Virus record (IMG/VR): IMGVR_UViG_3300043464_000574
Location: 1 to 56,467 of that record
Origin: a virus
Taxonomy: Duplodnaviria > Caudoviricetes
DNA: 56,467 nt
Strand: one strand, 5' to 3'
Shown: positions 582-55,873 of the stretch, piece after piece
Position numbering within the stretch: the first letter of the stretch is position 1
Layout of the letters: the number at the start of each line of letters is the position of its first letter
Made by a program: the position numbers and the translations under genes
The notes under the pieces: generated by a model
Databases searched by the model: none
Told to the model about the DNA's origin: nothing
Seen by the model: the letters and a program-made list of their open reading frames with translations, nothing else

Positions 582-1593
582 TGTAACTCTCCTTAATGAG
601 TTGTTTGGCGTACTGCTCGGGAGTGAGGCCAAGTCTCTTAGCGACGGAAACTTGTGTGGCAGTCAACTGGATTTTGCGTGGCTTCGCACCGTTGTTACGG
701 CTCGCTGAAGCAACCACGGTATTAGGGGTGCGTTGAGGGGAAACAGAGACTTGTACGTCATCTGAGTCTTTCTCAAAGTAATCTGGAAATCGTTGCCGCA
801 TCGCAGCATCGATCTTTTCGTAGTATTCGTCCGAATCGGCTTTGATGCCGTGTTCACGGATCAAGGTCTCATGGACTCCGTAGGCCAATGCAGTCATCTC
901 GCGGTTCCCCTGAGGGCCGAACCAAGGGTTTTTCTTGGTCCAATCCATAGCCTTATTGCTTGGCTGAGGAGCCTGATACTGCTGCACAGGAGGCTGGTAA
1001 GCCTGCTGTACCGGCTGGGGCTTGGGTCGAGACTGAAGAACACGCTCGTGCTTTTCAGCCTCCCGAAACTCCGTCTGGGCGTTAAGGAGTTTTTCCTGAG
1101 CCTCAATGATCTTCTGGGCATCACCGGCTTCGTAAGCGTCCTTGTACAGGTTCTTGGCCTGATCAAGGGCGAGATTGGCACGGGCTTTGATCTGGGCGAC
1201 GAGTGCGCCTTCTCCGCGCTGAAGTAATGACTCGTATTGCTGGTTTTTTGAGACCAGTTGTTGTGCGTAACGAAGCGCCTCTTCACGCATACGCTCGGCG
1301 GCTTCCCGCTGACGCTGCGCTTCATGCTGCTCGTACTTGAGTTTGTTGATTCTCTTGCGGACTTTTTCACTGTAGTCCGACAGTTCCTCGTCGTTGTCTT
1401 CCTTCTCAGCCTGCCTTGATTCAGGTTGTTTAAACTCAGACTGCTTGGCTGGCTGCTTTGGAAGATCATCAACGATCTCAAGTTCAACCTCGGGTTCCGG
1501 GGAAGACTTGAGGGTTTCTTTTTCAGGGATCTGCAAGGGAGCGGAGACTCCGAAGAACTTCTCCTCCTTGCTCATGCCTGCTTCGGTACTCAT
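574..1593 (-). CDS. Putative capsid scaffolding protein
   Basis: 339 aa; acidic N-terminus, long coiled coil (YSEKVRKRINKL...), W..KNPWF, C-terminal AKRLGLTPEQYAK; lies between the portal/GroES genes and the capsid genes. Confidence 0.65.
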   Translation of the reverse strand: MSTEAGMSKEEKFFGVSAPLQIPEKETLKSSPEPEVELEIVDDLPKQPAKQSEFKQPESRQAEKEDNDEELSDYSEKVRKRINKLKYEQHEAQRQREAAERMREEALRYAQQLVSKNQQYESLLQRGEGALVAQIKARANLALDQAKNLYKDAYEAGDAQKIIEAQEKLLNAQTEFREAEKHERVLQSRPKPQPVQQAYQPPVQQYQAPQPSNKAMDWTKKNPWFGPQGNREMTALAYGVHETLIREHGIKADSDEYYEKIDAAMRQRFPDYFEKDSDDVQVSVSPQRTPNTVVASASRNNGAKPRKIQLTATQVSVAKRLGLTPEQYAKQLIKESYNG

Positions 1594-1943
1594 GCCTTCA
1601 CCACTCCTCGCGGATCTTCGACCACCGCCTCGACCGAATCATCATTGATCAGGCGGAACTCTTTTCCGTGAACCTTAAAGCGAGTGCCGGAGTAGGATCG
1701 CATCATGATCCAATCCCCTTCCTTGCAGTAAGGGCCAGAAGGGAAACGATCAGGGGACTTGTAAGCATCCGGTCCCATCGCGAGGACGAAACCAACGATA
1801 CTCCCAATCTCCTCAGCCTCAAGTGTTTGAGTAGCCTTGAGGATTCCACCTTCGGTCTTCTCTTCGGGGTTAGGTAGCGCAATGAGTACTTTGTACCCGG
1901 TAGGTTTGGGTAACTGACTTGCGACTTTGTTGTCGTTTTCCAT
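1590..1943 (-). CDS. groES: GroES/Cpn10-like co-chaperonin
   Basis: PTGYKVLI, EEKTEGGI mobile-loop motif, VLAMGPDAY, GDW..MRSYSGT, FRLINDDSVEAVV; GAGG RBS before MENDNK at 1943. Confidence 0.85.
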   Translation of the reverse strand: MENDNKVASQLPKPTGYKVLIALPNPEEKTEGGILKATQTLEAEEIGSIVGFVLAMGPDAYKSPDRFPSGPYCKEGDWIMMRSYSGTRFKVHGKEFRLINDDSVEAVVEDPRGVVKA

Positions 1944-1948
1944 CGATT

Positions 1949-1992
1949 CCTCGCGCCTTTTCGGCGTTTGCACCCCTATCGGGGCGGTTGCA
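1949..1992 (-). promoter_or_regulatory. Two small hairpins in the groES leader
   Basis: Minus strand GCCCC-GATA-GGGGT and CGCC-GAAAA-GGCG, directly before the GAGG RBS. Confidence 0.35.
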
Positions 1993-2021
1993 CTGTTTAC
2001 ACAGCGAAGTTGTTAAGCCGT

Positions 2022-2219
2022 TTAATCATCGTCAATTTGTTTAGTGAGGTCAAGCAATTCTCGTTCAGCCCGTGCCAGACCCTCAATAACGCCACAGCAC
2101 CGCTTGTACTCATTGAAGTCGGCGCAGCCGCCACCGGCTATGTGGTCGGCCATGTCGTTCATCTGCTGGCGTAGGGATTTCCGCAGATATTCTGCGACGT
2201 TATCGCTTGCGGCTGGCAT
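2022..2219 (-). CDS. Small conserved phage protein downstream of the portal
   Basis: 65 aa, D..EYK...G.I.GL pattern typical of post-portal small genes; overlaps the portal end. Confidence 0.7.
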   Translation of the reverse strand: MPAASDNVAEYLRKSLRQQMNDMADHIAGGGCADFNEYKRCCGVIEGLARAERELLDLTKQIDDD

Positions 2220-4704
2220 TGCGATCTCTCATTTCTTGCTCTTTGGCTTGGGTCGAAAGCAAGTTTCGGGCGATCTCTACGCCTAACTTGGCTCCCTCGA
2301 CCTTGTCTCTGGAGGCAATTTCCTTGCTCTGGAGTTCGTTTGCGGCGTTGGTAGAAGCGATCTGTACACCCAGACGCGCCCCTTCGATACGCTCTTGAAC
2401 CTTGAGCCGGTCCTTTTCGGACTGCATCCGCATCTGCGCCTTCTGCATATCCGCTTGGACACGGGCCATTTCGGCCTGTGCTTTCTGCTGGATTTCCTGT
2501 GCGCGAAGTTGCAGTTTCTGCATCTCCATCTGAAGGACAGGGTCTTGCTGCTGCTGTTGCTGCTCTTGCATCTGGGCCTCTCGCTGGGCTTTTCCAGTGA
2601 CCTGAGCCGCAGCCGGGGCGACCAGAGCCGAGATCCGGTATTCGATATCCTCTGGGAGGGGTTCCCCCGGAGGAGGCAGTTTAAACCCGAGTTCCTTCTC
2701 AATCTGCTGCCGGTAGGCGAAGGCCAGATGTTCCGACACATGGGCGGTAAGGGCGGCTTGCATGGCCTGCGCGGCTTGAGGGGCCTGCTGGAGCATCTGC
2801 TGCAAACGCGGATCTTGCCCAAAAGACATGTGCGTTTGGATATGCGCCTCATGATCCTGATAGATAAACGCCTTGATGGGCTTCATCGTGAGGGCGTTCA
2901 TGTTCTCAGTGACAGGGTCAGTCGGTGGGATTTCCGTCTGATTCGGCAGAACCTCACTAGAGTCGGCAATCCCAAGCGCCTCAATCATCTGACGATGAAG
3001 CATGGGCAGGTCATACAACTGAGGGGCTTGAGAGGCCAACTGCAATGCGGCCTGATACTTCATGATCCGCTGGGCCATGGTTCCCGCGTTGGGATCTGAC
3101 ACCGGGATCACATCCACCCTGTCGTCGAAGTCTTCCTTGGTCAGTTCCTTGCCCGGAATGTCATAGGGATATTCCGTAGGACCGTAGTCAAAAATCACCT
3201 GAGCCAGCAGTTTCAGTTCCTTCTTCATGGAGGCGTGTAAACGCGCCTGCACGGCTGACATCACCTTCATCGACCTTTCGATGATTGCCAAGGTAGTTCC
3301 GACAGGAGCCTCGCCGTTCATGTCCGCGACCTTCATGTCTGCCTGAGAGGCAAACCGGCGTCCTTCGTCCACGATGTTTCCGAGCAACTGATACAAGGTA
3401 CCCGAGGGTTCCTTGTAGGGGAGGAAGGTGATGTTGTCCCTCAATGCACCGGAGGGGATATCCACATCACGGAACTCTCCCGGCATGATCGGGGTATCGT
3501 CGCCTTTGATCCGCAGGCCACGGGTCTTGAGACCGCCCGGAAGATTGGAGAGGGTTCCAGCGTCAACTAATTGACGCAGGATAGAGGTGGAGGATTTAGC
3601 GAGTCCACCAACGAGATGCACCAATCCAAACCCGTAGAAACCCAGTCCGGGGATGTAGGTGTACTGAACGAAATGCTGACGGCGCTTCTTGAGCGGGTCA
3701 TCTTCGTACCAGTTCCGTCGAATCGAAAGGATGATCCTTGAAGACTTGTCGATAGTGACGACGTAAGGCAGCGCAATGCCTGTTGGATTGCCTTCTGCGT
3801 CGGTGTCTTCGAATCCCGGAAGATCGTAATCGACGACCATTTCAAGGAGCGTATAGCGCGAATCCAGATCCATGCCCTTGGATTCACCGTTCAGTTTGTC
3901 GTAAGACTTCTGGATTTCGGTGATATCTGGAGAAGGGGGAGGAAGATCGACATCGCGATAGAAACCTGAGACCTGCAACTTTCGAATCTCGTTGTAGGTC
4001 TTCTTCATGACATGCGTGGCGCGTTCGCAGGTGACTAAATCACTTGCGCCATAAGAGACTACAAAATCCTCTGCTGGAACGAAGATCGATGCAGGCCTAC
4101 CGAGAGAAGGGTCGTAATAGACCTTTCGAAATGCCGCGCCGGAGAGTGCGAGAGAGAACAGCAACTTCTCTGTCTCTGAGCGATATTCGCTCATCTTTTC
4201 AGTCAAGAGATAGTTTAAATACTCTTGAACGCGCTCTGCTTGTTGAACACGGTCCAGATTCACTTGACCTAGAATCTTGGTCTGAACTGGTCCCTTTGCA
4301 GGGAAGATCTCTTGAATTGACTGTGCTTGGAAGCGAACAATTGCCTCAGAGAGCATCGGGTGAAATACACCGCAGGCTCCTTCCCATGGCTGGGTACGAT
4401 CTTCGATCTTGAGTCCGAGAAGATCTAATCCCTTGATGTAAGTTGTTTCCCATTCTTTGCGAGAATCTTTATCCGCATCGAAGAGGGTAACGAGTTCAGA
4501 GGCCATGCTCCCGAGGGTGGAGTTATCGATGAACTCCGCGAGATTGTCGCCATGACTCGCCTCAGGATTGGGTTCCGGGGAAAGACTGATCTCTACACCA
4601 CCATCGGGCAGTTCAACCACGACGGATTCATTCGCATCTTGGATGGGTACTTCTAAAGACTGCCCTCCCATCAAAGAGGGCATCAAAGCGCGATCAACCG
4701 CCAT
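2200..4704 (-). CDS. Portal protein
   Basis: 834 aa; R.EWE..Y.KGLDLLG, PWEGACGVFHP, GFYGFGL, LRQLVDAGTLSNLPGG, Q-rich coiled-coil (barrel-like) C-terminus; follows TerL. Confidence 0.9.
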   Translation of the reverse strand: MAVDRALMPSLMGGQSLEVPIQDANESVVVELPDGGVEISLSPEPNPEASHGDNLAEFIDNSTLGSMASELVTLFDADKDSRKEWETTYIKGLDLLGLKIEDRTQPWEGACGVFHPMLSEAIVRFQAQSIQEIFPAKGPVQTKILGQVNLDRVQQAERVQEYLNYLLTEKMSEYRSETEKLLFSLALSGAAFRKVYYDPSLGRPASIFVPAEDFVVSYGASDLVTCERATHVMKKTYNEIRKLQVSGFYRDVDLPPPSPDITEIQKSYDKLNGESKGMDLDSRYTLLEMVVDYDLPGFEDTDAEGNPTGIALPYVVTIDKSSRIILSIRRNWYEDDPLKKRRQHFVQYTYIPGLGFYGFGLVHLVGGLAKSSTSILRQLVDAGTLSNLPGGLKTRGLRIKGDDTPIMPGEFRDVDIPSGALRDNITFLPYKEPSGTLYQLLGNIVDEGRRFASQADMKVADMNGEAPVGTTLAIIERSMKVMSAVQARLHASMKKELKLLAQVIFDYGPTEYPYDIPGKELTKEDFDDRVDVIPVSDPNAGTMAQRIMKYQAALQLASQAPQLYDLPMLHRQMIEALGIADSSEVLPNQTEIPPTDPVTENMNALTMKPIKAFIYQDHEAHIQTHMSFGQDPRLQQMLQQAPQAAQAMQAALTAHVSEHLAFAYRQQIEKELGFKLPPPGEPLPEDIEYRISALVAPAAAQVTGKAQREAQMQEQQQQQQDPVLQMEMQKLQLRAQEIQQKAQAEMARVQADMQKAQMRMQSEKDRLKVQERIEGARLGVQIASTNAANELQSKEIASRDKVEGAKLGVEIARNLLSTQAKEQEMRDRNASRKR

Positions 4705-4715
4705 GGTGGTCTCCC

Positions 4716-4940
4716 TTACAGGTCGCGGAACTTACCGCCTTTAACGGCAGCGCCCATACCACGAGCAACGCCAGTCGTTCCCATGGTCTCGCCGCCGCCA
4801 TACATTTTCTTGGATCGCTTGGCACCGCCTACCATCACGGGCTTCCCAAGACCCTTCATCTTCCCAACAAGCATGTCCTTGGGCTGCTTGCGAGACTTCG
4901 GGGCTTCCATCTTCTCAGTCTTTGCAGTTCGGCTCTTCAT
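4716..4940 (-). CDS. Small basic protein with a MYGGG motif
   Basis: 74 aa, K/M/G-rich; GAGG RBS followed by ATTTAAAC and ATG. Confidence 0.7.
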   Translation of the reverse strand: MKSRTAKTEKMEAPKSRKQPKDMLVGKMKGLGKPVMVGGAKRSKKMYGGGETMGTTGVARGMGAAVKGGKFRDL

Positions 4941-4951
4941 CGTTTAAATCC

Positions 4952-6460
4952 TCAGTAGTAGGCTACTTTGCGTTTGTAGACAGGCTCATCCTTGTAATCG
5001 GACTGGAGGGAGACGAATCCGCCCCTTCGATAACGGAGCAATGCCTGTGTACACGAGTCCACATAGTCATCATGCTCTCCGGCGGGAAAAGACGCAAATT
5101 CTTCAACGACTTCCTCCGCGAATCGGGTGTTCGGTCGCCAGATCTTTCCGCTCGAAAAAAGATCCGCAATGGCGTTTACACGGGCGATCTTGTCGTTCCC
5201 CCGAGAGGGGGTGAATTCCGAGACCGGAATCCCCATGGCCCGAAGTTCGAAGATGAGGGGGGTTCCCGCCGCCTTGGCTTCCACGATCAGGGTGTCTGGC
5301 TTCCAGTAGTTGTAGAGTTCATACGCCCGTTTCTTCAGGGTCGGGAACTCCATCTTCTCCCGGTGGGCATCCATCAGGATGATGTTCGGTTGCATGGCTC
5401 CAGAGCCATCCGGGTGGTAGAACACACCCCAAGTGGTGCAGGCGGAGTAGTCCGAGCGTTCGGATTTTAGGAAGGCGGTATCCCATGACTGGATCAAAAA
5501 CTGACACTGGGGCGGGGAATCCTGTTCCCAGACTTTCCACCACTCGCGTTTAATCAACGCGCCTTCTTCGGAGGTGGGGTTCTGCTGGTACTGGGCTTGC
5601 CACTTATGAACCGGGATTTCTTCCCGAATAGCCTCTAGTTCTTCGATGGGCCAGAACTCCGGCCAGAGGGGTTTGCCCGAAGGCATGATCGCCGGGAACT
5701 CAATGACCTCCCATTCATCACCGCCTCTCTGTGCAGAGGCCTTGAGTACCTGTCCGACGAGGTCTCTTTTCGACCAACGGGTACAAATGACGACGATGGC
5801 CCCACCGGGCTGGAGACGCTGACGAGGACCGGAGGTGTACCATTCATAGGCATGGTCAAAGACGGCAGGATCTGCCGATTGGCCCTCTTGTTCATCATGG
5901 GGGTCGTCAATGATGAGCAAATCGGCACCCTTTCCGGTCACCGCACCGCCGATACCGATAGCGAAATACTCCCCACCCTTGGAGGTACTCCACCGACCGG
6001 CGGCTTTGGAGTCCGCACGGAGATGGGTATCTGGGAAAACCCCACGGTAATCCTCTGAATCGACCAAGTTTCGGACCTTTCGACCGAATCCCACTGCAAG
6101 TTCCGCAGTGTGAGAGGACTGAATGACCTTCTTGTGGGGGTATTTGCCCAAAAACCACGCCGGGAAGAGGAATGACCCGAATTCTGACTTGGTATGGCGA
6201 GGAGGCATACAGATGATCAGCCGTTTGAGTTTGCCAGCGGCAATTTCCTCAAACTTCTCGCCCATGATCTTGTGATGACGACCAGAAATGAACCCCGGCC
6301 ACATCTTATTCACGAAAGGAATGAACTTCTCTTGAGCCAGTTCCTTGGATTTCGCCTTCTCCCATTCCTCTAACAGCACTAACCATTCTTTCTGCTGGTC
6401 ATTAGGCAAGTTCTGCACTAAAGCCATGATTTTAGGCAGGTTTTCAACTGTTAGTTGCAC
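4952..6460 (-). CDS. terL: Terminase large subunit
   Basis: Walker A-type MPPRHTKS, Walker B LLIIDDPH, AQYQQNP, RNase H-like SWDTA, IVEAKAAG, HDDYVDS; probable GTG start at 6460 after GAGG. Confidence 0.95.
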   Translation of the reverse strand: MQLTVENLPKIMALVQNLPNDQQKEWLVLLEEWEKAKSKELAQEKFIPFVNKMWPGFISGRHHKIMGEKFEEIAAGKLKRLIICMPPRHTKSEFGSFLFPAWFLGKYPHKKVIQSSHTAELAVGFGRKVRNLVDSEDYRGVFPDTHLRADSKAAGRWSTSKGGEYFAIGIGGAVTGKGADLLIIDDPHDEQEGQSADPAVFDHAYEWYTSGPRQRLQPGGAIVVICTRWSKRDLVGQVLKASAQRGGDEWEVIEFPAIMPSGKPLWPEFWPIEELEAIREEIPVHKWQAQYQQNPTSEEGALIKREWWKVWEQDSPPQCQFLIQSWDTAFLKSERSDYSACTTWGVFYHPDGSGAMQPNIILMDAHREKMEFPTLKKRAYELYNYWKPDTLIVEAKAAGTPLIFELRAMGIPVSEFTPSRGNDKIARVNAIADLFSSGKIWRPNTRFAEEVVEEFASFPAGEHDDYVDSCTQALLRYRRGGFVSLQSDYKDEPVYKRKVAYY

Positions 6461-6915
6461 TGATGGGAACCTCAAAATGCAGGGACAATAGCCCCCGTTT
6501 CATCACAATCCCAACCTCTCCCTCTTTTTTTAGCCCTCCACGGCGATTGAGTGGCGTAAGTCTTCAAACACATCGCCTGTCTCATCATTATTTCGCTATC
6601 GTTTCGCTCGAAACTAGGTGTTTGTTGCCTTCTTACCTCTTATTCTTAAAAGCCGAAGGCAAAATTCTTGAGAAACTACACCCTTACAGCGAATTTAGTG
6701 TTACATTTAAACCTAGTTTCTCGCTAAACTTTCAATACAATACCGATTGTATCACAATCCGGAAGGAAAGTCAATAGAGATTGTCAAAATTTTTGCAAAA
6801 AAAATTTCTACAACCTCACTGACACTCTACAACAAAATCCTACCGGAACCTGAAACACTACAACCGCTCACAACGGAACTTAACCACTATACCCCGTCTG
6901 TTGTTTATACGCAAC

Positions 6916-6945
6916 AGTAGGGGAAAGTAGGGGAAAGTAGGGGAA
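6916..6945. repeat. Tandem repeat (AGTAGGGGAA)x3
   Basis: Three exact 10-bp copies in the non-coding terL-terS gap. Confidence 0.9.
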
Positions 6946-7087
6946 TCGTTTGAGGAAAATCGTATGTATGGGTACGCGCAGGTACCCGAACGCGCACGGG
7001 GGGGTGCGGGTGCGCGATTAGACCGCGCGTGCGCCCGCGTTTAACCCCCACGGGCGTGCGTTATCTACCGCGCAGGTGCGTGCGCTT

Positions 7088-7642: not shown

Positions 7643-7841
7643 TGTGCGTTTAACCCTTGTTTACTAGTGCATTTGCTAATCTTTGACCATGCTGATTGCA
7701 TGACCGACTCACCGAATCCTACTTTCGGCCATGTTTAGACGCAACTAAATTCGACCGATAATCAATGACTTAGCATACAGGCTGATAAATTTATCGTTTA
7801 ACCTGTAGACATGTGACCATGATATCGACGAGTATTGACAC

Positions 7842-8076: not shown

Positions 8077-8094
8077 CAACCAACGGAGAAGCAA

Positions 8095-8304: not shown

Positions 8305-8318
8305 CGTGGAGAGCAAAC

Positions 8319-8606: not shown

Positions 8607-8608
8607 CA

Positions 8609-10171: not shown

Positions 10172-10173
10172 TC

Positions 10174-49218: not shown

Positions 49219-49228
49219 GTTTAAACTC

Positions 49229-50023
49229 CTAATTCACCGTAGGGATGTTGGCCCAAGTCGTGGTTTGCGAGTCATCGACATCAGACCATCCCGGTGTCTG
49301 ATCATCGTTTAAATTCTGCCAGTTAGCCGACTGATTGTCATCGACGGGATTCCACAAGTATGCCCCGGCCATCACATCTGAAGCCGTGGCGGATTCGGCA
49401 ACCTCGACATCGAAGGTCACACCCCCGGCCACGTCCGAATCAGCCGCAGTGACGATCTCATTGATCATCACCTTGAAGTTCATCTGAGCCGCTGCTGTCT
49501 CCGCCGCAGAGACGATCTCAGCCACTTTCGCTCCGAAGGCGGCTACCGATGAGGGGGTATCTGTTATGGTCGCAGACTCATCCACACTCACCAAGAACGA
49601 GAAGACGGAATACACATCGTCTTGTGCGGTTGCCGTCTCTTGGATCTGGGAGTCAAACTCCTGTCCTGCTTTGGGTGCGCTATCGACGTAAACAGCCGAT
49701 TCGTTCACTACGACCTTGAAGTCGTTACTGGCCGAGTTGGCATCTGAGTAGGTCGCCGCTTCGCTGACCTTGGTGGCAAAGTTGACGTTCGACAGAACCG
49801 AATCGGTTCCGGTCGCAGAGTCTGCAACTGCTGCGCCGAGGCTATAAACTGAAGACACCGTATCTTGGGCGACAACGGACTCTGAGACGGGCGCATTGAA
49901 CTGCGTACCCGCCCCTGTGTTGGCATCATTGATGGTCGAAGTTTCGTCTGAGGCGCGGTAGTAAACCGACATCCCCCATCCTGCTTGACCCCATGTGCCT
50001 GATCCGAAGCCGCCCTCTGACAC
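49229..50023 (-). CDS. Virion protein with acidic beta-repeats
   Basis: 264 aa; repeated V.E.A...D units, W..[VL]DD.Q...W C-terminus. Confidence 0.7.
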   Translation of the reverse strand: MSEGGFGSGTWGQAGWGMSVYYRASDETSTINDANTGAGTQFNAPVSESVVAQDTVSSVYSLGAAVADSATGTDSVLSNVNFATKVSEAATYSDANSASNDFKVVVNESAVYVDSAPKAGQEFDSQIQETATAQDDVYSVFSFLVSVDESATITDTPSSVAAFGAKVAEIVSAAETAAAQMNFKVMINEIVTAADSDVAGGVTFDVEVAESATASDVMAGAYLWNPVDDNQSANWQNLNDDQTPGWSDVDDSQTTTWANIPTVN

Positions 50024-50026
50024 TGT

Positions 50027-50209
50027 TTAAACTACAAGTTTCAGTTCCGTCTCCGCGAACCAACGCTGCTGGCTCTGGCCTTCGGCATCTACCCAAGGGA
50101 TGAGATACCAAACCATGCCTTCATCGTCCATGCGGATCGACTGGACCTTGCCCTGCGGAACTACGACCTTCAGTTCAACGAGGTCGCCTTTCTTGAAAAG
50201 ACTTGCCAT
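50027..50209 (-). CDS. Small conserved protein (YodC-like pattern)
   Basis: FKKGDLVELK...W.D..G..Q.RWF.E.EL; AGGAG RBS. Confidence 0.65.
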   Translation of the reverse strand: MASLFKKGDLVELKVVVPQGKVQSIRMDDEGMVWYLIPWVDAEGQSQQRWFAETELKLVV

Positions 50210-50221
50210 ATCTATCTCCTA

Positions 50222-50803
50222 TCAGGCCGCGTCGAGGCTAAAGGTGTAGGTCACAGACAGAACGTCGCCGTTCTGCACCACGCGATCACCGGGGGCCGCG
50301 AAGTCGGACGCAGAGAAAAGGACGCCAGAAGAACCGCCCGGAGTGTCGCCGCTTGTCAGGAACGCGCCACCGACGTTAGCCGACGCATTGATCAGGAACT
50401 GCGCCGGGGCGGCAGAGTTAGCAATGACCGAAGGATCAGCCGTGGTTGCTGCACCGAAGGTCGCAGCAGGGCGGGTCGCGTTGCCGTACGCCGTCACTTC
50501 CGTCCAACCGGCATGGGATGCCATCGTGTCCGTCGAAGACGGATTGTTGCTGGAAGCCGGGCCGTAGACGCCGATATACCACGCCGCCGTATAACCTGAA
50601 CCCTTGAAGAAGGTGGTGTTGACGTAAGCCAGACCCACATTCACCACGAGGTTATGGGACTTCTGTTCCCACTTGAGGTTGCCGTTTTTGTCGTGGCAAC
50701 GCACGGTGAAAATACCGCCGCCCTTGAGACCGTCACGGGTGCCATTGCCTTTCAGGACATTTGCACCAACGGCATCAACAGACTTTGCCTTATTGATGAG
50801 CAT
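50222..50803 (-). CDS. Virion structural protein
   Basis: 193 aa; NLVVNVG, WY.G, DTMASHAGWTEV, GDVLSVTY. Confidence 0.7.
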   Translation of the reverse strand: MLINKAKSVDAVGANVLKGNGTRDGLKGGGIFTVRCHDKNGNLKWEQKSHNLVVNVGLAYVNTTFFKGSGYTAAWYIGVYGPASSNNPSSTDTMASHAGWTEVTAYGNATRPAATFGAATTADPSVIANSAAPAQFLINASANVGGAFLTSGDTPGGSSGVLFSASDFAAPGDRVVQNGDVLSVTYTFSLDAA

Positions 50804-50814
50804 CGTTGATTCTC

Positions 50815-51228
50815 CTAAGTAAACCGTAGTAACGCTGAGTTATAAGTGTTTGCAGGCATCTGCACCGTGAATGAGTTCGTGGCAACCTTGTCGTTGCCAA
50901 AACTCAGAACTGCGATGGACTTATTGGACTTACTGACGTTGTAAATCAACCCGCCAGCCGCCGTGAAACTGGCAGGGTTCCAAACTGCATTGTTGAAGTT
51001 GACGTAGACCACGTCGTTTAACTTGTTGATCGATACCCCAGTCAGAACGACACCGCCTGCGGAATACCCTGTGCCAGATACTTCGCCTGTCGCCGTGTAA
51101 ACCGTGGTGTCTTCGCTAAGATCGGCAGTGCTGTAGTACAAAGCCAACTTGAGCGTATCCGTCAGGAGATTGTGTTCTCCTTTGAGGATCTGCTCTTTGA
51201 AACTCAGGGTAATGGTCTGGTAGATCAT
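50815..51228 (-). CDS. Virion structural protein
   Basis: 137 aa; SFK..L.G.H, KLALY, EVSGTGYSAGG, LIYN. Confidence 0.7.
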   Translation of the reverse strand: MIYQTITLSFKEQILKGEHNLLTDTLKLALYYSTADLSEDTTVYTATGEVSGTGYSAGGVVLTGVSINKLNDVVYVNFNNAVWNPASFTAAGGLIYNVSKSNKSIAVLSFGNDKVATNSFTVQMPANTYNSALLRFT

Positions 51229-51863
51229 GTGACCGGAATCCTATTGAGTCCGCTCCGGTACGCATCCCGACGATCCTTGCCTTCGCCAAGGAGTTTCAGC
51301 AGGCCGAGCGATTCCTGATACTTCTGCTCGTAGTACTGCATCATGTCCTGCTCGCCCTTCATGTAGATGTAGGCTTCGCGCAGGGTTCCGTACAGAAGCA
51401 CGGTCTCGAAATTATCGCCCAGCCAAGACGTACTCGCCGTAACAATGGACTGCGGGTAGTAGTAGTAATGCAGTTCGACCTGATAGTTGCTATCCGGGGT
51501 CGGACCCAGAATGAACGTGTTCTTGTCGAAGATGGCGTAGTACTTGGGGATGCCGATATCGTCCGGGTCCGGATAGCACTCACGAATGAAGTTCACATCC
51601 TTATCCAGCAAGAACGTCTGAGCATTGGTTACTGGGTCGATCACCGACAGCGAGAAGTTCGCCAGCCAGTCCGCCGGAACCGTCAGGTATTTGTTGCTTG
51701 GGGTCAATGTTCCAATCTGGTTCTTTCGGATCGCAGGAATAAAGACCGCGTTGTAGATCCGCTCTTCGGCCAACTGGACGAAATTGGGGATGTTCGCAAC
51801 GAACGAAGTCTCCTCGTTCTGCGTGTACTGTTTAACCAGATCAACCAGTTGGGTGTAGTTCAT
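51225..51863 (-). CDS. Head-tail adaptor (tubular A-like)
   Basis: MNY..L...V..YT, F..LAEERI, G.PKYYA, LGPTPD..Y.VELHY, LLYG.L.EA..YMKG. Confidence 0.75.
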   Translation of the reverse strand: MNYTQLVDLVKQYTQNEETSFVANIPNFVQLAEERIYNAVFIPAIRKNQIGTLTPSNKYLTVPADWLANFSLSVIDPVTNAQTFLLDKDVNFIRECYPDPDDIGIPKYYAIFDKNTFILGPTPDSNYQVELHYYYYPQSIVTASTSWLGDNFETVLLYGTLREAYIYMKGEQDMMQYYEQKYQESLGLLKLLGEGKDRRDAYRSGLNRIPVT

Positions 51864-52237
51864 GTCGTTACCACCGTCACGGTTCCGACTAAGCCGGTGG
51901 ATATCAGGTAATTAGGGGTCAGGCCGGTATCATATCCTTCAGCGCCACCCACTGGGTTCCATCCATATTGGAACATTCGACTACCTCCTGCGCCTTGGTT
52001 ACCCGGCGCGTAGAAGGTGTTATCAGGACGAGCGTTGCGAAGGGCTTGCGGGTCATCCATCGGGACACGACCTAACTGCAACTGCGGATGATCCACATCC
52101 ATACATTCAAAGCAGACACGAATGCCAATGGGGAGCAGGTTTTCATACTGCTCGTTTAAATCATGCAGATCGTACCGCTGACCACATCGGTCGCAGAATC
52201 CGAATGCATGTTTACCACTGGAAAACGGTTTTCCCAT
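51860..52237 (-). CDS. Zinc-binding head-tail module protein
   Basis: CDRCG...VC.EC.D.DHPQL, DPQALR.ARPD. Confidence 0.7.
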   Translation of the reverse strand: MGKPFSSGKHAFGFCDRCGQRYDLHDLNEQYENLLPIGIRVCFECMDVDHPQLQLGRVPMDDPQALRNARPDNTFYAPGNQGAGGSRMFQYGWNPVGGAEGYDTGLTPNYLISTGLVGTVTVVTT

Positions 52238-52941
52238 TAGACATTCCTGCCAATGTACCCATTCATGGGAACGAATCGGACAGAGGCTTTTTCACGATCC
52301 TCGCCCGCCGCAAGATCCCACTGGAGTTCGTATTCCTGCTTGAGCATCCCCAAGCGGTCTGCGGCTTCCGGGCGCTTCATGGCGACGTAGTACGCAAGCC
52401 CTGCCACGAGACAGGGAAGGAACCGGGCGGGAACATCGATGTTGTTCGCGCCGCCTGTACCGACATCCTGAATACGACGCATCTTCCAGTAGATAAGCGT
52501 GTAGGTCTGGGTGTTGTCAGGGACGGGCCAGAGGTACACCACCGGGGCGGCTCTTTGCCGATCCACATAGATCTGCAAAGGCATCCCTTGGGTGAGTTTG
52601 TTGCTCAACTGGGCGTAGTCCGACACCGAGATGCGAGAGAGGGTGTAGTCGGTTTGGCCGGACGTGCTACCCGCATCGGTACGCAACTGGTGTTCCAGAA
52701 GGTCGATGGTGTCCGCTGGCATGGTGTAGGTGTAGGTTCCGGGAGTCAGTACCTGAGAACCCTGTTCTACCGTCCAGAGGTTGATACCCCGGTTCTGCCA
52801 TTCCAGCGCCATGAAGTTCATGGACCGACGGGCAGTCTGGAGATCATAGCCGGTACGCAACTCCATACCCGCCCGCTCGAAAGCCTCCTCAACGAGGTCT
52901 CGAAACTCCGGGTTAAAGACTGCTGTACCGCTCGTAGCCAT
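52237..52941 (-). CDS. Head-tail adaptor (P22 gp4-like)
   Basis: EEAFERAG, ARRSMN...EW.NRGINLW, WPVPD, RF.P.LVAGLAYY. Confidence 0.75.
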   Translation of the reverse strand: MATSGTAVFNPEFRDLVEEAFERAGMELRTGYDLQTARRSMNFMALEWQNRGINLWTVEQGSQVLTPGTYTYTMPADTIDLLEHQLRTDAGSTSGQTDYTLSRISVSDYAQLSNKLTQGMPLQIYVDRQRAAPVVYLWPVPDNTQTYTLIYWKMRRIQDVGTGGANNIDVPARFLPCLVAGLAYYVAMKRPEAADRLGMLKQEYELQWDLAAGEDREKASVRFVPMNGYIGRNV

Positions 52942-53267
52942 TAGACCATCCGACCTTTGGTCTTACCCTTGATCGCGCAGCCATCACGACTGCCACGTCC
53001 GGTGGAACCACCTTCTGCGTAGGTCATGCCGCCGCCCATCATCTTGCCCTTGCCATCAGCGGCAAAGAACGGGACTTTCTCTCCGCCCTTATCAACCATC
53101 TTCAGGCTACCGCCCTGTGCGTACATCGCACCGCCTTTCTTGTAGCGAGTCATACCGCCTCCCATCATTTCTTCACTGTCATCTTCCATGCGGTCTTCCA
53201 TGTCTTTACCGCGACCTTTCTTGCCCACGCCAATGGCAATGATCATCATCGGCTTTCCGTTTTTCAT
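52941..53267 (-). CDS. Small Met/Gly/Lys-rich protein with repeated xxGG motifs
   Basis: 108 aa; MMGGG, YKKGG, YAQGG, YAEGG; ends DGCAIKGKTKGRMV. Confidence 0.7.
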   Translation of the reverse strand: MKNGKPMMIIAIGVGKKGRGKDMEDRMEDDSEEMMGGGMTRYKKGGAMYAQGGSLKMVDKGGEKVPFFAADGKGKMMGGGMTYAEGGSTGRGSRDGCAIKGKTKGRMV

Positions 53268-53503
53268 CCTCGTGTCCTCCCGCGAACTGCACAGCCATCA
53301 ATGCTTCCGCCCATTGCCATCTTCTTTGGCTTGCTCATGCCAGCCTCAGACAAGGCAATAGCGATAGCCTGCTTGCGGCTTTTCACCATTGGTCCTTTCT
53401 TGCTACCCGAATGCAGGGTTCCTTCTTTGAACTCCCGCATCACCTTGCGAACCTTGCCCGGCTTCTCAATCTGCTGGGCCATGTTGGCGCGTGACATTGC
53501 CAT
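53264..53503 (-). CDS. Small basic protein (DUF6496-like)
   Basis: KVMREFK.G.LHSG...VKSRKQAIAIALSEAG; ends DGCAVRGRTRG. Confidence 0.75.
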   Translation of the reverse strand: MAMSRANMAQQIEKPGKVRKVMREFKEGTLHSGSKKGPMVKSRKQAIAIALSEAGMSKPKKMAMGGSIDGCAVRGRTRG

Positions 53504-53504
53504 C

Positions 53505-53750
53505 TCATTTGCCTCTCTGTCTAAACGGCCTTACTTTTTGGGAGATGCCTTTTGGCTGCGCGACGAATTGCTTGCCTTGGGCTTTACCTTTACGTTTGGC
53601 TGCGGTGGTACGGGCATATTCCGAAGACGAGAGAGCCTTGATCGCAGCCTCTGGAAGATATCGCTCGCCCGTTTTACTAGATGGCTTACCACTTTTGGTT
53701 CTCCACTTCTGTTCCGTCCAAGCCTTCAGTGACTGCTGAGGGGCCTTCAT
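53505..53750 (-). CDS. Small basic protein
   Basis: Q.SLK.WT.QKWRTKSGK, GERYLP..A, QFV.QPK. Confidence 0.75.
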   Translation of the reverse strand: MKAPQQSLKAWTEQKWRTKSGKPSSKTGERYLPEAAIKALSSSEYARTTAAKRKGKAQGKQFVAQPKGISQKVRPFRQRGK

Positions 53751-53751
53751 A

Positions 53752-54096
53752 TCAACGCTTTTTGGCCTTGAGCATTCCGCCCTTTTTCACCATTGCCATG
53801 TTGCTCATGCGACCCGCAGGAGCAGCCATCGGAGGAGGCGGGGGAGACATCGGACGAGTCGGGGGAGCATTACGGGCAGCGCGGGCAGCGTCGAGACGCC
53901 CACGAGCAGCGTTCACAGCAGCCTGCTGAGGGGAACCCGGAGCGCGAGTCTTATCGGACATCGCCCGGCTCATAGCCAAAGCGCGAGCGCGAGACTCAGG
54001 GTCAGTTCGCTGACTCAGCGGAACATACGGGGCTTTACCGCCAGCCTGCATCTTCTTAACACCAGCCTTCTGATTCGACAAAGTACGACCTTTCAT
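53752..54096 (-). CDS. Basic Ala/Pro-rich protein with xxGG motifs
   Basis: 114 aa; KKMQAGG and VKKGG; GAGG RBS. Confidence 0.65.
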   Translation of the reverse strand: MKGRTLSNQKAGVKKMQAGGKAPYVPLSQRTDPESRARALAMSRAMSDKTRAPGSPQQAAVNAARGRLDAARAARNAPPTRPMSPPPPPMAAPAGRMSNMAMVKKGGMLKAKKR

Positions 54097-54105
54097 AAGA
54101 ACCTC

Positions 54106-54543
54106 TTAGGTAATAGGCCCACCAACGAGCCATGCATCGCAGGTACGATTACCCGCACATTTGAAATGGAAGAGTTCGCAGTACCCGAGATTGCTGGCTT
54201 TGATGACATCCATGGAACTATCCATGTGAGGCTCATCACCCGCCTCCATGCCTTTCGCAATGCATTCAAGCATCTTCGGGGTCTTGATAAATGCCGCGCA
54301 GTTTCCACACCGTGCGGTCTTTGCTTCCTCTGGGGAGATCATCCAGAGTTTTGCCTTCTTGGACCAGAACTTCTCTGAAGGTTCGTTCGGGTTCAGTGGG
54401 CCATAACCATAGTCTTCGATGGCATGGTTACGATTCTTCAGATTGACATGGATGTCCAAGGTCGCGACAGGGCAAGCCTTGCCGTCCTTATAGGATCGCT
54501 TGATGGCTGCGCCTATCGCATCCTTTTTGATCCGCATTGCCAT
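54106..54543 (-). CDS. Cys-rich conserved phage protein
   Basis: CPVAT.D..NL.NR, YGP.NP, RCGNCAAF, GYC..F.FKCA..RTCDAW; probable start at MAMRIK. Confidence 0.7.
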   Translation of the reverse strand: MAMRIKKDAIGAAIKRSYKDGKACPVATLDIHVNLKNRNHAIEDYGYGPLNPNEPSEKFWSKKAKLWMISPEEAKTARCGNCAAFIKTPKMLECIAKGMEAGDEPHMDSSMDVIKASNLGYCELFHFKCAGNRTCDAWLVGGPIT

Positions 54544-54544
54544 A

Positions 54545-54730
54545 TCAATCTCTGTAGCCGCCTCCGGCTTCACGGTACTTTTTAGCCAGCAACTGAGCCT
54601 TACGGGCAGACCACTGGCCTGCTTTGGTTCCGTGTGTCGAGGCGGCTTTGATCTGGTTAAACAGGCGCTTCCGCATTTCGGGCTTGGTGTAGTTGCCCGC
54701 CGCGTTGACCTTGCTCTTTGCCTTAGCCAT
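54545..54730 (-). CDS. Small basic protein
   Basis: NYTKP.MRK, GQWSARKAQLLA..Y...GGGY. Confidence 0.75.
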   Translation of the reverse strand: MAKAKSKVNAAGNYTKPEMRKRLFNQIKAASTHGTKAGQWSARKAQLLAKKYREAGGGYRD

Positions 54731-54731
54731 G

Positions 54732-54986
54732 TCAGCAGTTCCACGCACGAAGAGACTTATTGATCCGACTGTTCGGATCATTCGCCGTCTTCTTGCTAGT
54801 GAGTTTCTTTTTCATGCCCTTCATTCGGGCGCAGAAAGAATCTCGACGTGGACCGCCTTCGGGTTGCGGGCGCTTCAGCCCCGGCTTGCCGGGATTGGCA
54901 CGGTTATAAGCAGCCCTGCCTTTGGCATTTAAACCGCCAGCAGGGTCTTTACCTTCTTTCCTTTGCCATGCCGGGGTCTTTGGCAT
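54732..54986 (-). CDS. Small basic protein
   Basis: GGLNAKGRA.YN, RR.SFCARM, SRINKSLRAWNC. Confidence 0.75.
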   Translation of the reverse strand: MPKTPAWQRKEGKDPAGGLNAKGRAAYNRANPGKPGLKRPQPEGGPRRDSFCARMKGMKKKLTSKKTANDPNSRINKSLRAWNC

Positions 54987-54989
54987 AGA

Positions 54990-55586
54990 TCACCCGCAAA
55001 TAACAGTGACTTTCGACACCTGATCCAAGGTCAGCACGGCGATATCACCACGTCCAGAATTGCTCTTGGTCGTGAGAATACCTTCCGGCGGAACCATGGC
55101 ATCGTTAGCCGTTGCATCGGCAGGGGTGAAGAGTTTGAGAATCACCGTGTTGTTCGGCTGCGCGGTGAAAGTGATGCTGCCTGCCGTTCCAGCGGCAACA
55201 TAAAGCACCTGCTTGATCCGCGTTCTGGGAAACGCCAGATCTCCACCGTAGCCAATCTTGACACCGCCAGTCGAAGCCGCGCTGACGCTGATGCTGTTGA
55301 TGCTAGTGTAGTAGTTGGTCGAATAGACCACCGACGCACTTGGACCCGTCACCGTTTCGGTCACGATCCCATCGTAGCCTTCAGCGCCAACTTTGACCCC
55401 AGTGATGGTGAAGGTCTTATTGGCATCCGCACCGTTAGAGGTGATCGAAACCTTATAGCCGGTACCGTACTGACCGACATTGGTCTTCAGGAGAGCAATG
55501 CTTCCTGAGGCTGCAATCGTCGCAGAGGCGCGGAAATAAGCATCGTCGCTGGTCGGATTTACCGCCCAGACATCGTACTGTGCCAT
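54990..55586 (-). CDS. Virion structural protein
   Basis: 198 aa, Thr/Ser/Gly-rich beta protein; GGAGG RBS. Confidence 0.7.
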   Translation of the reverse strand: MAQYDVWAVNPTSDDAYFRASATIAASGSIALLKTNVGQYGTGYKVSITSNGADANKTFTITGVKVGAEGYDGIVTETVTGPSASVVYSTNYYTSINSISVSAASTGGVKIGYGGDLAFPRTRIKQVLYVAAGTAGSITFTAQPNNTVILKLFTPADATANDAMVPPEGILTTKSNSGRGDIAVLTLDQVSKVTVICG

Positions 55587-55607
55587 AGAGAATCCTCCGC
55601 TTTAAAA

Positions 55608-55862
55608 TTAAACGGTGACGCTCTTGTACAAGGCGATGTAAGCGGTGGTCGCGCCAACGAGAACCTGAATGTAGCCCGTCTGAGCGGACACCAAACCAGA
55701 AGCCGCATTCACTGCTACGGCAAACTTGGTGCTGCCAACCGTAAGGCTGGTGCAAAGCAGGTTGGTAACCGTACCCGAAGCGGCCTTGATGACCGTCGCG
55801 GACACATCACCGATGAAGCCATTGTCCGACTCAACCGGACCAGAGAAAGTAGTCTTAGCCAT
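55608..55862 (-). CDS. Putative head fibre/decoration protein
   Basis: MAKTTFSGPV.S..GF N-terminus, typical of the gene after the major capsid gene; GAGGTTTAAACATG start. Confidence 0.7.
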   Translation of the reverse strand: MAKTTFSGPVESDNGFIGDVSATVIKAASGTVTNLLCTSLTVGSTKFAVAVNAASGLVSAQTGYIQVLVGATTAYIALYKSVTV

Positions 55863-55873
55863 GTTTAAACCTC

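Follow-up and report, generated by a model that had tools for sequence, protein, structure and literature searches.

DNA uptake sequences of the Pasteurellaceae (USS) and of Neisseria (DUS) are short words that occur about once per kb, are evenly spread, are accommodated in genes through codon choice, are frequent in terminator loops and mark DNA as self for the machine that translocates it. In cyanobacteria, the highly iterated palindrome HIP1 (GCGATCGC), a perfect 8-bp palindrome, occurs about once per kb and is 15- to 300-fold over-represented; it lies within and between genes, is conserved between genomes and non-randomly spaced, and its function is still open (PMC5861425, PMC4390886). Three decades have passed without an agreed function for such cyanobacterial palindromes (PMC5861425). 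Here we analysed IMG/VR virus record IMGVR_UViG_3300043464_000574, a lake-water phage of the HTVC023P-like podovirus group, taken at its full length of 56,467 nt (hereafter the window), in which the octamer GTTTAAAC is iterated. No description of an iterated GTTTAAAC was found in the literature searched.

The first-pass annotation had listed 13 exact copies of GTTTAAAC, and all 13 were located in the 56.5-kb window at the coordinates given below. This number compares with an expectation of 0.3-1.5 (0.6, 0.3 and 1.5 under Markov models of order 0, 2 and 3, respectively), and none of 100 dinucleotide shuffles reached it (mean 0.44, maximum 3). At orders 4-5 the Markov expectation takes up the signal, but only through the enrichment of the 6- and 7-mers that the motif contains. 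One-mismatch variants, of which dozens had been claimed, numbered 67 versus 12.8-21.1 expected, while two-mismatch variants lay below expectation (118 versus 163-185). Altogether, 80 sites with at most one mismatch were counted in the window, about 1.4 per kb, in agreement with the earlier estimate of roughly one per kb. Exact copies exceed expectation 20-40-fold in the window and over 50-fold in a related 46-kb record (G001); like HIP1, GTTTAAAC is a perfect palindromic octamer with a genome-wide excess of at least an order of magnitude. Loss of the enrichment under a dicodon-preserving shuffle had been named beforehand as an outcome that would refute a selected signal; the excess survived synonymous, codon-order and dicodon-preserving shuffles. 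The word has the same eight letters as the PmeI restriction site. Phages avoid restriction sites, whereas GTTTAAAC is selected for here; it is over-represented, not under-represented as expected of a palindromic restriction word under avoidance, just as the annotation had remarked.

Eight exact copies lie inside genes: 1428..1435 in gene 574-1593(-), read xxG TTT AAA Cxx and kept in 0 of 6 aligned relatives; 2679..2686 in the portal gene 2200-4704(-), kept in 2 of 9 relatives; 15377..15384 in the primase-helicase gene 14159-15676(-), read xGT TTA AAC; 19921..19928 in gene 19355-21271(+); 32086..32093 in the gene for a 2817-aa polyvalent protein, 24943-33396(-); 43480..43487 and 43627..43634 in the virion structural protein gene 42799-45087(-); and 47356..47363 in the tail fibre gene 46975-49218(-). 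At 13618..13625 the word fills the spacer between the Shine-Dalgarno sequence and the ATG of gene 13626-13952(+) (distance 0), and it lies likewise between Shine-Dalgarno and ATG of the tail fibre gene (49219..49226, distance 0) and of gene 55608-55862(-), where the copy at 55863..55870 abuts the ATG and is kept in 2 of 2 relatives. The intergenic copy at 8797..8804 adjoins the 5' side of the Shine-Dalgarno sequence, 14 nt upstream of the ATG at 8819, and the copy at 50025..50032, which lies 52 nt upstream of the next start, supplies through its TAA the stop codon of gene 50027-50209(-). Several one-mismatch sites also lie close to starts: gene 4716-4940(-) has GTTTAAAT at 4942..4949, 1 nt from its ATG and identical in 6 of 11 relatives, GTTTAACC is found 5 nt upstream of the small terminase ATG (7648..7655) and again at 34981..34988, where 1 nt separates it from the ATG of gene 33396-34979(-), and ATTTAAAC at 9172..9179 lies 13 nt upstream of the ATG at 9193 and is kept in 3 of 3 relatives. 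The other 63 one-mismatch sites are scattered through all modules (1995..55953). The first-pass annotation had placed all of these near-start sites, and the copy at 50025, in initiation regions, which holds for all except the stop-codon copy at 50025; its wording that the motif is often found between ribosome-binding site and start was overstated, being true of 3 of 13 exact copies and 5 of all 80 sites, at 0-1 nt from the start.

The word is made chiefly through synonymous codon choice and the filling of non-coding spacers. Of the 80 window sites, 57 lie inside coding sequence. Among exact copies, the in-gene share is 8 of 13 for the window and 27 of 37 for G001; the exact in-gene sites use only frames 1 and 2, which avoid stops (5 + 3 in the window, 16 + 11 in G001). 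As for HIP1, copies are thus found within genes in stop-free frames and also between genes. The 8 exact and 47 one-mismatch sites within window genes compare with 0.30 and 10.8 after synonymous shuffling (0/200 shuffles reach the observed values) and with 3.8 and 28.4 after dicodon-preserving shuffling (3/200 and 0/200, respectively). Coding contexts able to encode the exact word do so in 8 of 12 cases in the window (0.2 expected) and in 27 of 42 in G001 (1.5 expected), a large effect, versus 0 of 14 and 1 of 19 in the control phages G004 and G005. Where one mismatch is the best possible outcome, 45 of 284 contexts reach it versus 6.7 expected, and of 46 one-mismatch sites that this test scored, 45 lie where the protein rules out the exact word; two-mismatch outcomes are depleted (22 versus 42.6 expected). 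TTA makes up 7% of leucine codons, and TTA-AAC is nonetheless used in 16 of 54 Leu-Asn pairs. Non-coding exact copies number 5 versus 0.06 expected in the window and 10 versus 0.07 in G001, an excess of 80-140x.

Furthermore, the word is conserved where the protein does not demand it. Site-by-relative comparisons were identical in 84 of 146 cases versus 41 expected, and among codons with unchanged amino acid, 179/222 (0.806) were identical inside motif sites and 12866/20872 (0.616) elsewhere (p=1.5e-9), a difference of the same sign in 12 of 13 relatives. Exact sites of G001 were kept in 17 of 17 cases in G002 and L135, where merely 31-41% of 8-mers are identical. The synonymous-site conservation proposed earlier as a check is thus present, and site conservation above background is a further HIP1-like feature. 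Synonymous-site conservation is also expected from an ongoing biased-repair drive. Spacing, likewise proposed for scrutiny, was more even than random for the window sites (CV 0.70 versus 0.98, P=0.0004) and for the exact sites of G001 (CV 0.71 versus 0.96, P=0.023); a density near one per kb with even spacing, here 80 sites in 56.5 kb, is the pattern of DNA uptake sequences. Codon bias toward the word, conservation, even spacing and recurrence in relatives uphold the original idea of a selected DNA signal comparable to HIP1.

The changes tolerated in the word are mirror-imaged: G1>A was counted 8 times and C8>T 11 times, T2>G and A7>C 10 times each, T3>G 4 times and A6>C 7 times, and the central TA is almost invariant. 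Words altered in both halves were not enriched in the window (GTGTACAC 1, GGTTAACC 0, ATTTAAAT 0 copies). The preferred form is Y-GTTTAAAC-R, with one mismatch tolerated in one half. Strict two-fold symmetry together with even spacing points to duplex DNA rather than mRNA as the recognised molecule.

Exact copies in related records number 37 in G001 (versus 1 for a control word), 11 in G002, 7 in G003, 0 in G004 and 1 in G005. The word occurs in at least three clades of the TerL tree, and its iteration is a heritable trait of several HTVC023P-like podovirus branches, with sister branches lacking it. Gene associations with the motif lack phylogenetic independence; the tree has only about 3-5 transitions. 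A motif-only scan of the viral collection for two GTTTAAAC copies within 30 nt returned 26 enriched loci, 21 of them relatives by at least two proteins in common with the HTVC023P-like group and 3 more with single weaker matches to its proteins, below that cut-off; unrelated phages among the viral contigs scanned do not share the word. The GC content of motif-bearing relatives spans 34-55%, in favour of different hosts. The phage density is not approached by any of the 552 bacterial genomes sampled (maximum 0.08 per kb, versus 0.23 in the window and 0.80 in G001), and the MAG holding the L115 phage contig is not enriched elsewhere (16 copies in ~2.1 Mb, fewer than the control word). Enrichment in the host is excluded as far as the sampled genomes go. 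The first-pass suggestion of a host nucleoid protein is nevertheless disfavoured, since the scan returned almost only this phage group and the 552 genomes are without comparable density. We thus observe a HIP-type signal in a 56-kb virus, with sister lineages that do not carry it and others that carry it more strongly.

We consider it somewhat more probable than its negation (about 0.55) that GTTTAAAC is a selected double-stranded DNA recognition tag, similar to HIP1 or uptake sequences, with a symmetric reader encoded by the phage lineage. The reader would be a two-fold symmetric, probably dimeric protein; genome-wide site density, not single positions, would matter, and the word may mark phage DNA as 'self' for a process acting genome-wide. 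Poor retention of the exact copies at 1428 and 2679 among relatives (0 of 6 and 2 of 9) counts against this reading. With HIP1 it shares the 8-bp palindrome, a similar density, a large excess and the same kind of conservation. Nevertheless, it is another word in a virus record and not GCGATCGC in a cyanobacterial chromosome: it is A/T-rich and has neither a GATC nor a CGATCG core, its carriers form a lineage of 46-56 kb viruses instead of a cellular phylum, sister lineages are without it, its excess is greatest in non-coding DNA, and no cognate methyltransferase was seen among the scanned proteins. As with uptake sequences, some copies lie in terminator loops (27428 in G001), but USS and DUS are asymmetric and cellular, while GTTTAAAC is palindromic and in a phage, and the terminase as the machine is a guess. 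The operator arrays of global regulators (KorA/KorB of RK2, C1 of P1) consist of a palindromic or fixed word that recurs 7-17 times along 60-100 kb. They too run along a mobile element and have a single element-encoded reader, but their sites are in promoter regions, about ten times fewer, and without selection on coding sequence.

Our leading guess for the reader, tentative and drawn from co-occurrence only, is the phage small terminase, with dispersed pac-like packaging entry sites replacing a single one. The small terminase subunit of the window (phrog_51 type; 7088..7642, minus strand) is co-inherited with the motif: among TerL loci with at least 3 kb upstream, all 9 motif-positive loci had this type, as did 3 of the 25 motif-negative ones (L083, L084, L108), in which the TerS is a distant member of the same family. 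Seven one-mismatch sites flank the gene within 6705-7796, and sites cluster on both of its sides in the window, L033, L055 and L076. On this view GTTTAAAC would be recognised, wherever it lies on the molecule, by the small terminase or a protein acting with it. Phage DNA would thereby offer about 80 starting points for packaging and host DNA almost none, the word being 3 to >100 times rarer there, and genomes replicating side by side would compete for packaging, so that the word would come to fill every synonymous opportunity. Known pac and cos sites (P22, SPP1, lambda cosB, P1 pac) are phage-specific sequences read by TerS, usually in or beside terS, and form single loci of 20-200 bp. The clustering around terS and the co-inheritance with one TerS family resemble them, but instead of a single locus in or next to terS, 80 dispersed 8-mers are found genome-wide. 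No position at which many molecules start or stop was seen in the assembled contigs, a kind of data that does not reveal physical DNA ends. TerS proteins form ring oligomers that require only one entry site per concatemer, hence an 8-bp palindrome every 700 bp is unlike known pac sites, and we know of no TerS that reads an 8-bp palindrome. Other genes track the motif as well as TerS does. A SprT-like zinc protein with HExxH and a C-terminal zinc ribbon (9566..10171, plus strand) is co-inherited with it (7 of 9 motif-positive versus 0 of 25 motif-negative loci), although its protease-like fold makes it an unlikely reader, and the primase-helicase, RusA and PD-(D/E)XK genes are common to the window and G001 and were not found in the non-motif records, all of which are incomplete. 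Of the two small proteins put forward in the first-pass annotation (16895, 19075), the one at 19075-19299 gave weak HTH hits only.

It seems unlikely that the word is a by-product or mark of methylation-linked repair, in which a methyltransferase tags the word and either biased short-patch or mismatch repair converts near-words, or selection keeps about one methyl mark per kb for strand discrimination. The HIP1-like anatomy, an 8-bp palindrome about once per kb in both open frames of genes, is consistent with it, as are the depletion of two-mismatch words and the excess of one-mismatch and exact words. Elhai's model predicts near one site per 1000 nt (PMC4390886). The presence in the window of an FkbM-family methyltransferase (21268-21897), the sole methyltransferase in the scanned subset of ORFs, also speaks for it. 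This gene has no homologue in G001, however, and no recognisable DNA methyltransferase or Vsr/MutH-like nuclease was seen among the proteins of this subset. Neither the even spacing nor the 6.7-fold one-mismatch excess where the protein forbids the exact word is obviously explained by a drive that mends mismatches inside a recognised site. For HIP1, Xu et al. argue from conservation for selection over biased repair.

We regard as quite unlikely a gene-expression signal, that is, an A/U-rich translation-initiation element (a spacer or enhancer beside the Shine-Dalgarno sequence) or an early-gene operator or promoter, with the in-gene copies secondary. Start-associated sequences of Cluster K mycobacteriophages and PeSL cassettes of T4-type phages are iterated short sequences just before starts or between early genes, and the copies at 13618, 49219 and 55863 and the intergenic hairpins of sister lineages resemble them; those elements are confined to intergenic positions, whereas most copies here are in genes. 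The high non-coding excess would fit such a signal, as would the 5 of 19 upstream window sites at 0-1 nt from the start codon, the 2 of 19 at 13-14 nt, immediately 5' of the Shine-Dalgarno sequence, and the three sites of G001 at distance 0. The other iterated palindromes or hairpins of sister lineages lie only between genes, ~15 nt before starts (8/8, 7/7, 11/11). In the low-GC lineage (L203, L229, L222) the word has asymmetric flanks (TGTTTAAACAAG), is gene-oriented and extended to GTTTAAACAAG(GAG), and is concentrated almost only in the early-gene region; this pattern looks more like a gene-expression signal and counts against the tag reading. The sites as a whole are not confined to a fixed pre-start position, with upstream distances varying from 0 to 97 nt; moreover, most exact sites of the window and G001 lie within genes, use both open frames and come close to saturating the synonymous opportunities, which would not be expected of a start-site signal, and two-fold symmetry and even spacing favour duplex DNA over mRNA.

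A Chi-like recombination signal is improbable. The word would stop or modulate a helicase-nuclease, either of the host RecBCD/AddAB type or the phage PD-(D/E)XK exonuclease with Sak and RusA, and act in protecting either end of the linear phage DNA or in seeding recombination-dependent replication. Selected density and even spacing of an 8-mer suit this proposal, as does its freedom of orientation, a property required in a phage whose two ends are exposed. The recombination module (PD-(D/E)XK 17152-18042, Sak 18091-18798, RusA 16443-16769) is shared by the window, G001 and L197, and non-motif records did not yield it. Known Chi words, by contrast, are asymmetric and strand-specific, and host genomes carry them in high numbers, while recognition here is symmetric, unrelated phages in the scanned collection are without the word, and it is rare in all 552 sampled bacterial genomes. 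Least probable of all is a host-driven origin, in which the word is a host protein binding site or mutational product that the phage mirrors. Oligomer usage in a phage can follow that of its host, and a single host clade might serve all motif-bearing branches. Against this, 21 of the 26 enriched loci are relatives by shared proteins and 3 more have single weaker matches to proteins of this group, GC content varies widely among motif-bearing relatives, and neither the sampled bacterial genomes nor the L115 MAG outside its phage contig is enriched.

Returning to the recognition tag, the contrast between motif-bearing and motif-free lineages narrows the search for its reader to genes common to the motif-bearing lineages. 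If the packaging machinery is the reader, phages would have a previously undescribed means of discriminating their own DNA from that of the host. GTTTAAAC would in that case be the viral equivalent of bacterial DNA uptake sequences, and the reason for the existence of HIP-type palindromes could be studied in a tractable model. If a repair or methylation system is the reader, it would show that such drives can be virus-borne. The presence of the word is worth considering in the recoding or synthesis of such genomes. Either way, GTTTAAAC offers an easy way to recognise this branch of podoviruses, which are abundant in fresh and marine waters.

All 13 exact copies of the 8-bp palindrome GTTTAAAC (the word) listed for the window by the first-pass annotation were recovered at its positions. 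Dinucleotide-preserving shuffles of the window (n = 100) contained a mean of 0.44 and a maximum of 3 copies, and Markov models of orders 0 to 3 predicted 0.3-1.5. One-mismatch variants (one-off sites) were likewise in excess (67 against 13-21 expected) and two-mismatch words were depleted (118 against 163-185). The coding sequence carries 8 exact and 47 one-off sites, compared with 0.30 and 10.8 after synonymous codon shuffling within genes, 0.24 and 9.9 after shuffling of codon order, and 3.8 and 28.4 in an Euler shuffle keeping every dicodon. With 200 shuffles of each kind, the observed exact count was attained by none of the synonymous, none of the codon-order and 3 of the dicodon shuffles, and the one-off count by none at all. 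The excess therefore persists under the very shuffle that the first-pass annotation had named as able to overturn its reading of the word as a selected DNA signal.

Recognition of the word is symmetric. The single changes tolerated in the window mirror each other between the two halves (G1>A 8 and C8>T 11; T2>G 10 and A7>C 10; T3>G 4 and A6>C 7), and the central TA is nearly invariant. Judged from the sequence, such mirrored tolerance marks a duplex DNA site recognised with two-fold symmetry. Palindromes altered in both halves were not enriched in the window (GTGTACAC 1, GGTTAACC 0, ATTTAAAT 0), thus each site pairs a perfect half with a half changed at no more than one position; the preferred flanks of GTTTAAAC are a pyrimidine 5' and a purine 3'. 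A one-strand RNA or primase signal is disfavoured by the two-fold symmetry of the tolerated changes, and a word this short cannot form a hairpin by itself. T TTA AAC is a slippery heptamer, but a -1 frameshift reading was rejected, as both open frames are in use.

Selection, or an equivalent continuing force, acts on the word at the DNA level. Exact sites in the window number 5 in its 4.4 kb of non-coding DNA (0.06 expected) and 8 in its coding DNA (0.57 expected), and the corresponding figures for G001, the record of a word-bearing relative, are 10 against 0.07 and 27 against 0.69. Within genes only the two stop-free frames, xGT TTA AAC and xxG TTT AAA Cxx, are used. TTA makes up 7% of the leucine codons of the window, yet TTA-AAC is found in 16 of its 54 Leu-Asn pairs (28/68 in G001). 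All coding contexts were enumerated with their synonymous alternatives, and expectations were derived from codon usage. Eight of the 12 window contexts able to encode the exact word realise it (0.2 expected), and 45 of the 284 in which one mismatch is the best achievable attain it (6.7 expected), with two-mismatch outcomes depleted in the latter (22 against 42.6); at 45 of the 46 one-off sites scored, the exact word is forbidden by the protein. The word is realised in 27 of 42 possible contexts in G001 (1.5 expected) and in 0 of 14 and 1 of 19 in the word-free control relatives G004 and G005, respectively. Since word-compatible peptides are two to three times as numerous in G001 as in the control phages, the proteins themselves seem to be shifted toward the word. 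Around start codons, the exact sites at 13618, 49219 and 55863 form the spacer between Shine-Dalgarno sequence and ATG, the one-off sites at 4942 and 34981 lie 1 nt from the start, and the sites at 8797 and 9172 lie 13-14 nt upstream of it, immediately before the Shine-Dalgarno sequence; the site at 50025 supplies a TAA stop.

Density and spacing of the sites are selected, rather than position. Conservation was determined in thirteen relatives of 72-90% nucleotide identity covering about a quarter of the window, mainly the terminase side, all comparison records being fragments. Of 146 site-by-relative comparisons, 84 showed an identical motif-family site, whereas random 8-mers would give 41. 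Where the amino acid was unchanged, identical codons made up 179 of 222 inside sites and 12,866 of 20,872 elsewhere, with the same sign in 12 of the 13 relatives, which are not independent samples; conservation at synonymous positions, a check put forward by the first-pass annotation, thus exceeds background. Spacing regularity, another check from the same annotation, was observed as well, the 80 window sites (CV 0.70 against 0.98 for random placement, P=0.0004) and the 37 exact G001 sites (0.71 against 0.96, P=0.023) being more even than random; in shorter records evenness did not reach significance. All 17 exact G001 sites that align with the word-bearing relative G002 or contig L135 are retained, at a background 8-mer identity of only 31-41%. 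Between G001 and distant relatives 6 sites are common, 7 are found only in G001 and 18 only in the relatives, and in three orthologous genes of the window and G001 a single site coincides, the one-mismatch GTGTAAAC in the large terminase (TerL). Hence sites persist in the short term and turn over in the long term with their density held, at 1.4 per kb in the window and 1.6 in G001. The coincident GTGTAAAC lies at TerL codon 426 in the window and codon 410 in G001, the two proteins being 67% identical.

The completeness of the window (56,467 bases, the whole viral record) was estimated at 95%. Its TerL (4952-6460, minus strand) shares 52-58% identity with the TerL proteins of phage 023Pt_psg01 and the pelagiphages HTVC027P and HTVC023P, and positions 1-25000 gave no near-identity match to named phage records. 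Genes, called with an in-house simple caller rather than taken from curated annotation, include on the minus strand those for the portal (2200-4704), a phrog_51-type small terminase (TerS, 7088-7642), a primase-helicase (14159-15676), the tail fibre (46975-49218) and a 2817-aa polyvalent protein with ART-PolyVal (ADP-ribosyltransferase) and LPD38 domains (24943-33396), whose G001 counterpart (3088 aa, 25% identity) carries 12 copies of GTTTAAAC. Further genes encode RusA, a PD-(D/E)XK nuclease and a Sak annealing protein (16443-18798), an FkbM-family methyltransferase (21268-21897) and a SprT-like zinc protein (9566-10171). The last is followed by CobT-like (phrog_249, 'porphyrin biosynthesis') and DUF7192 genes (10174-11999), and this three-gene early block recurs in word-bearing relatives. 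The 627-bp gap between TerS and TerL (6461-7087) contains three perfect 10-bp repeats in tandem (AGTAGGGGAA, 6916-6945), a stretch of very high GC content (6975-7085) and, around 6740-6790, a strong sigma-70-like promoter directed at TerL; a late promoter, a packaging site or both may lie in it.

In a close relative (L005 11801-13016), the sequences matching the two window ends, 1 and 56467, stand about 1.2 kb apart with no alignment in between; probably either about 1 kb is missing from the record at this point or the segment is variable, which fits the 95% completeness. Fourteen public runs labelled lake water metagenome contain most of one 10-kb stretch of the window as assembled contigs. 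Four of these were aligned and gave no pile-ups of begins or ends, but such contigs cannot show DNA ends. None of the 40 listed variable places in 42001-56467, a region with 1057 further ones, falls in its 6 exact sites. Four separate lake-water runs share a contig start at 49211, eight bases before the word at the tail fibre start, and coverage of the fibre gene consists of many variant pieces; at this junction a fibre that varies among strains seems to meet a conserved flank.

The word is lineage-specific. Among 80 viral contigs selected by TerL, GTTTAAAC was strongly iterated in L032 (8 copies), L033 (14), L034 (3), L055 (4 in 4.6 kb), L064 (5) and L076 (7 in 6 kb), and most others had none. 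G001, the full 46-kb record of L033, has 37 copies against 1 of a control word; the word-bearing relatives G002 and G003 have 11 and 7, and the word-free G004 and G005 have 0 and 1. The close relatives of the window are all positive when sites with at most one mismatch are counted, and the word appears in at least 3 separate clades of the terminase tree. The viral collection was also scanned as a whole, without use of homology, for pairs of copies at most 30 nt apart, and at least 118 further loci were obtained. Among the matches listed, 26 loci were enriched beyond the required two copies, 21 of which share at least 2 proteins with the window or G001, and 3 of the other 5 gave single weaker matches to proteins of the group, below this cut-off. 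The densest locus among the matches listed, L226 1-7509 (19 copies in 7.5 kb), adjoins glutamine amidotransferase, amidoligase and transglycosylase genes and is linked to the group only by a weak primase-helicase match. In a related contig, about 15 CGGCAT repeats (L082 6706-6800) are the source of a false 'iterated 8-mer' signal.

A role of the word in gene expression was kept as a rival explanation, because the word may have a regulatory origin or two purposes. It is favoured by a low-GC (34-36%) lineage in which the word is extended to TGTTTAAACAAG and oriented with the genes (L203 482-5153, L229 93-4138, L222 7947-10254); in L203, 15 of 16 copies lie within a 5.1-kb early region, next to a SprT-like gene. 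The TerL of this lineage belongs to the same PHROG family and is too diverged for tblastn, and the SprT-like gene is its only detectable link to the phage group of the window. Sister lineages without GTTTAAAC carry iterated palindromes or hairpins of their own, one word per lineage: CCTAACATGTTAGG (L059 271-3275), CTAACATTGTTAG (L035 421-5590), AACCTACA-N4-TGTAGGTT (L041 86-5490) and GCGTACGG-N3-CCGTACGC (L070 133-8690). These lie only between early genes (8/8, 7/7 and 11/11 outside coding sequence), about 15 nt (mostly 14-18 nt) before start codons, and such placement also speaks for the gene-expression role. One possibility is that the word first served as a regulatory element of the early region and later spread genome-wide in some branches; another is that it serves two purposes.

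The word was also compared with uptake sequences, Chi, pac sites, start-associated sequences, PeSL cassettes, and KorA/KorB and C1 operator arrays. The nearest known system to iterated GTTTAAAC is HIP1 (PMC5861425), which has been proposed to be a by-product of methylation-linked repair (PMC4390886), and an origin of this type is possible for the word as well; recent work ties HIP1 to natural transformation and horizontal transfer (PMC13756078; bioRxiv 10.1101/2024.09.10.611283). No report of the word was found in the papers searched on phages, highly iterated palindromes and HTVC023P. The main text of PMC9599517 does not contain 'palindrom', 'promoter' or 'terminal repeat', and its supplementary gene tables may bear on gene content.

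In bacterial genomes sampled from two classes (401 and 151), the density of GTTTAAAC did not exceed 0.08 per kb, the window having 0.23 and G001 0.80, a statement that does not rest on the 5 of 552 genomes flagged as unpublished; as a rule the control word was the commoner of the two. Two of these genomes, G435 and G542, contain 39 and 30 copies against 3 of the control word (10-13 times), scattered across many contigs (0.015-0.028 per kb), a mild bias far below phage density. The 18 loci with TerL matches among bacterial assemblies, in MAGs from many phyla, are most likely mis-binned phage contigs, and therefore no host was called. GTTTAAAC is present in only one of these, L115, and the rest of the MAG containing this contig shows no enrichment. 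A host-driven origin is thus unlikely, as the scan matches listed were mostly relatives, the sampled bacteria lack a comparable density and the L115 MAG is not enriched elsewhere; together these results point to something inherited with the phage lineage.

In loci selected by terminase and extending at least 3 kb upstream of TerL, the phrog_51-type TerS occurs in 9 of 9 word-positive and 3 of 25 word-negative loci and the SprT-like protein in 7 of 9 and 0 of 25, counts that reflect only a few evolutionary transitions. In word-free lineages an unrelated gene adjoins TerL. To the extent that incomplete records can show it, the genes for the primase-helicase, RusA and PD-(D/E)XK also track the word; the primase-helicase was not found in 5 word-free records, each 40-72% complete. 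The SprT-like protein was not favoured as a reader of the word: its predicted structure (pLDDT 87.5) best matches the Spartan protease domain (6mdw, E 0.015, prob 0.97) and next best minigluzincins, with profile matches to PDB sequences at E 0.0097 or weaker, and suggests a Spartan-like DNA-dependent protease with a zinc ribbon and no obvious sequence-specific dimer. A 76-aa LexA-like winged-helix protein (phrog_362 'transcriptional repressor', E 6e-7; L033 9765-9995) is encoded immediately before TerL in L032, L033, L064 and L076, the branches richest in exact copies. It was rejected as a universal reader, since the window, whose branch has mostly one-mismatch sites, encodes no homologue. Pfam detected no DNA-binding domains in nine small early proteins and the product of 12075-12737. 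Word sites lie on both sides of the TerS gene in every word-bearing lineage examined. Of the co-inherited proteins, only TerS is known to serve in recognising phage DNA, and for these reasons we infer it to be the leading candidate reader.

Among possible roles of the word, packaging recognition ranks first, a nucleoid-like or global regulator protein second, and a nuclease-modulating or recombination signal third. The reader would be phage-encoded and dimeric, and the word would function as a genome-wide 'self' mark.
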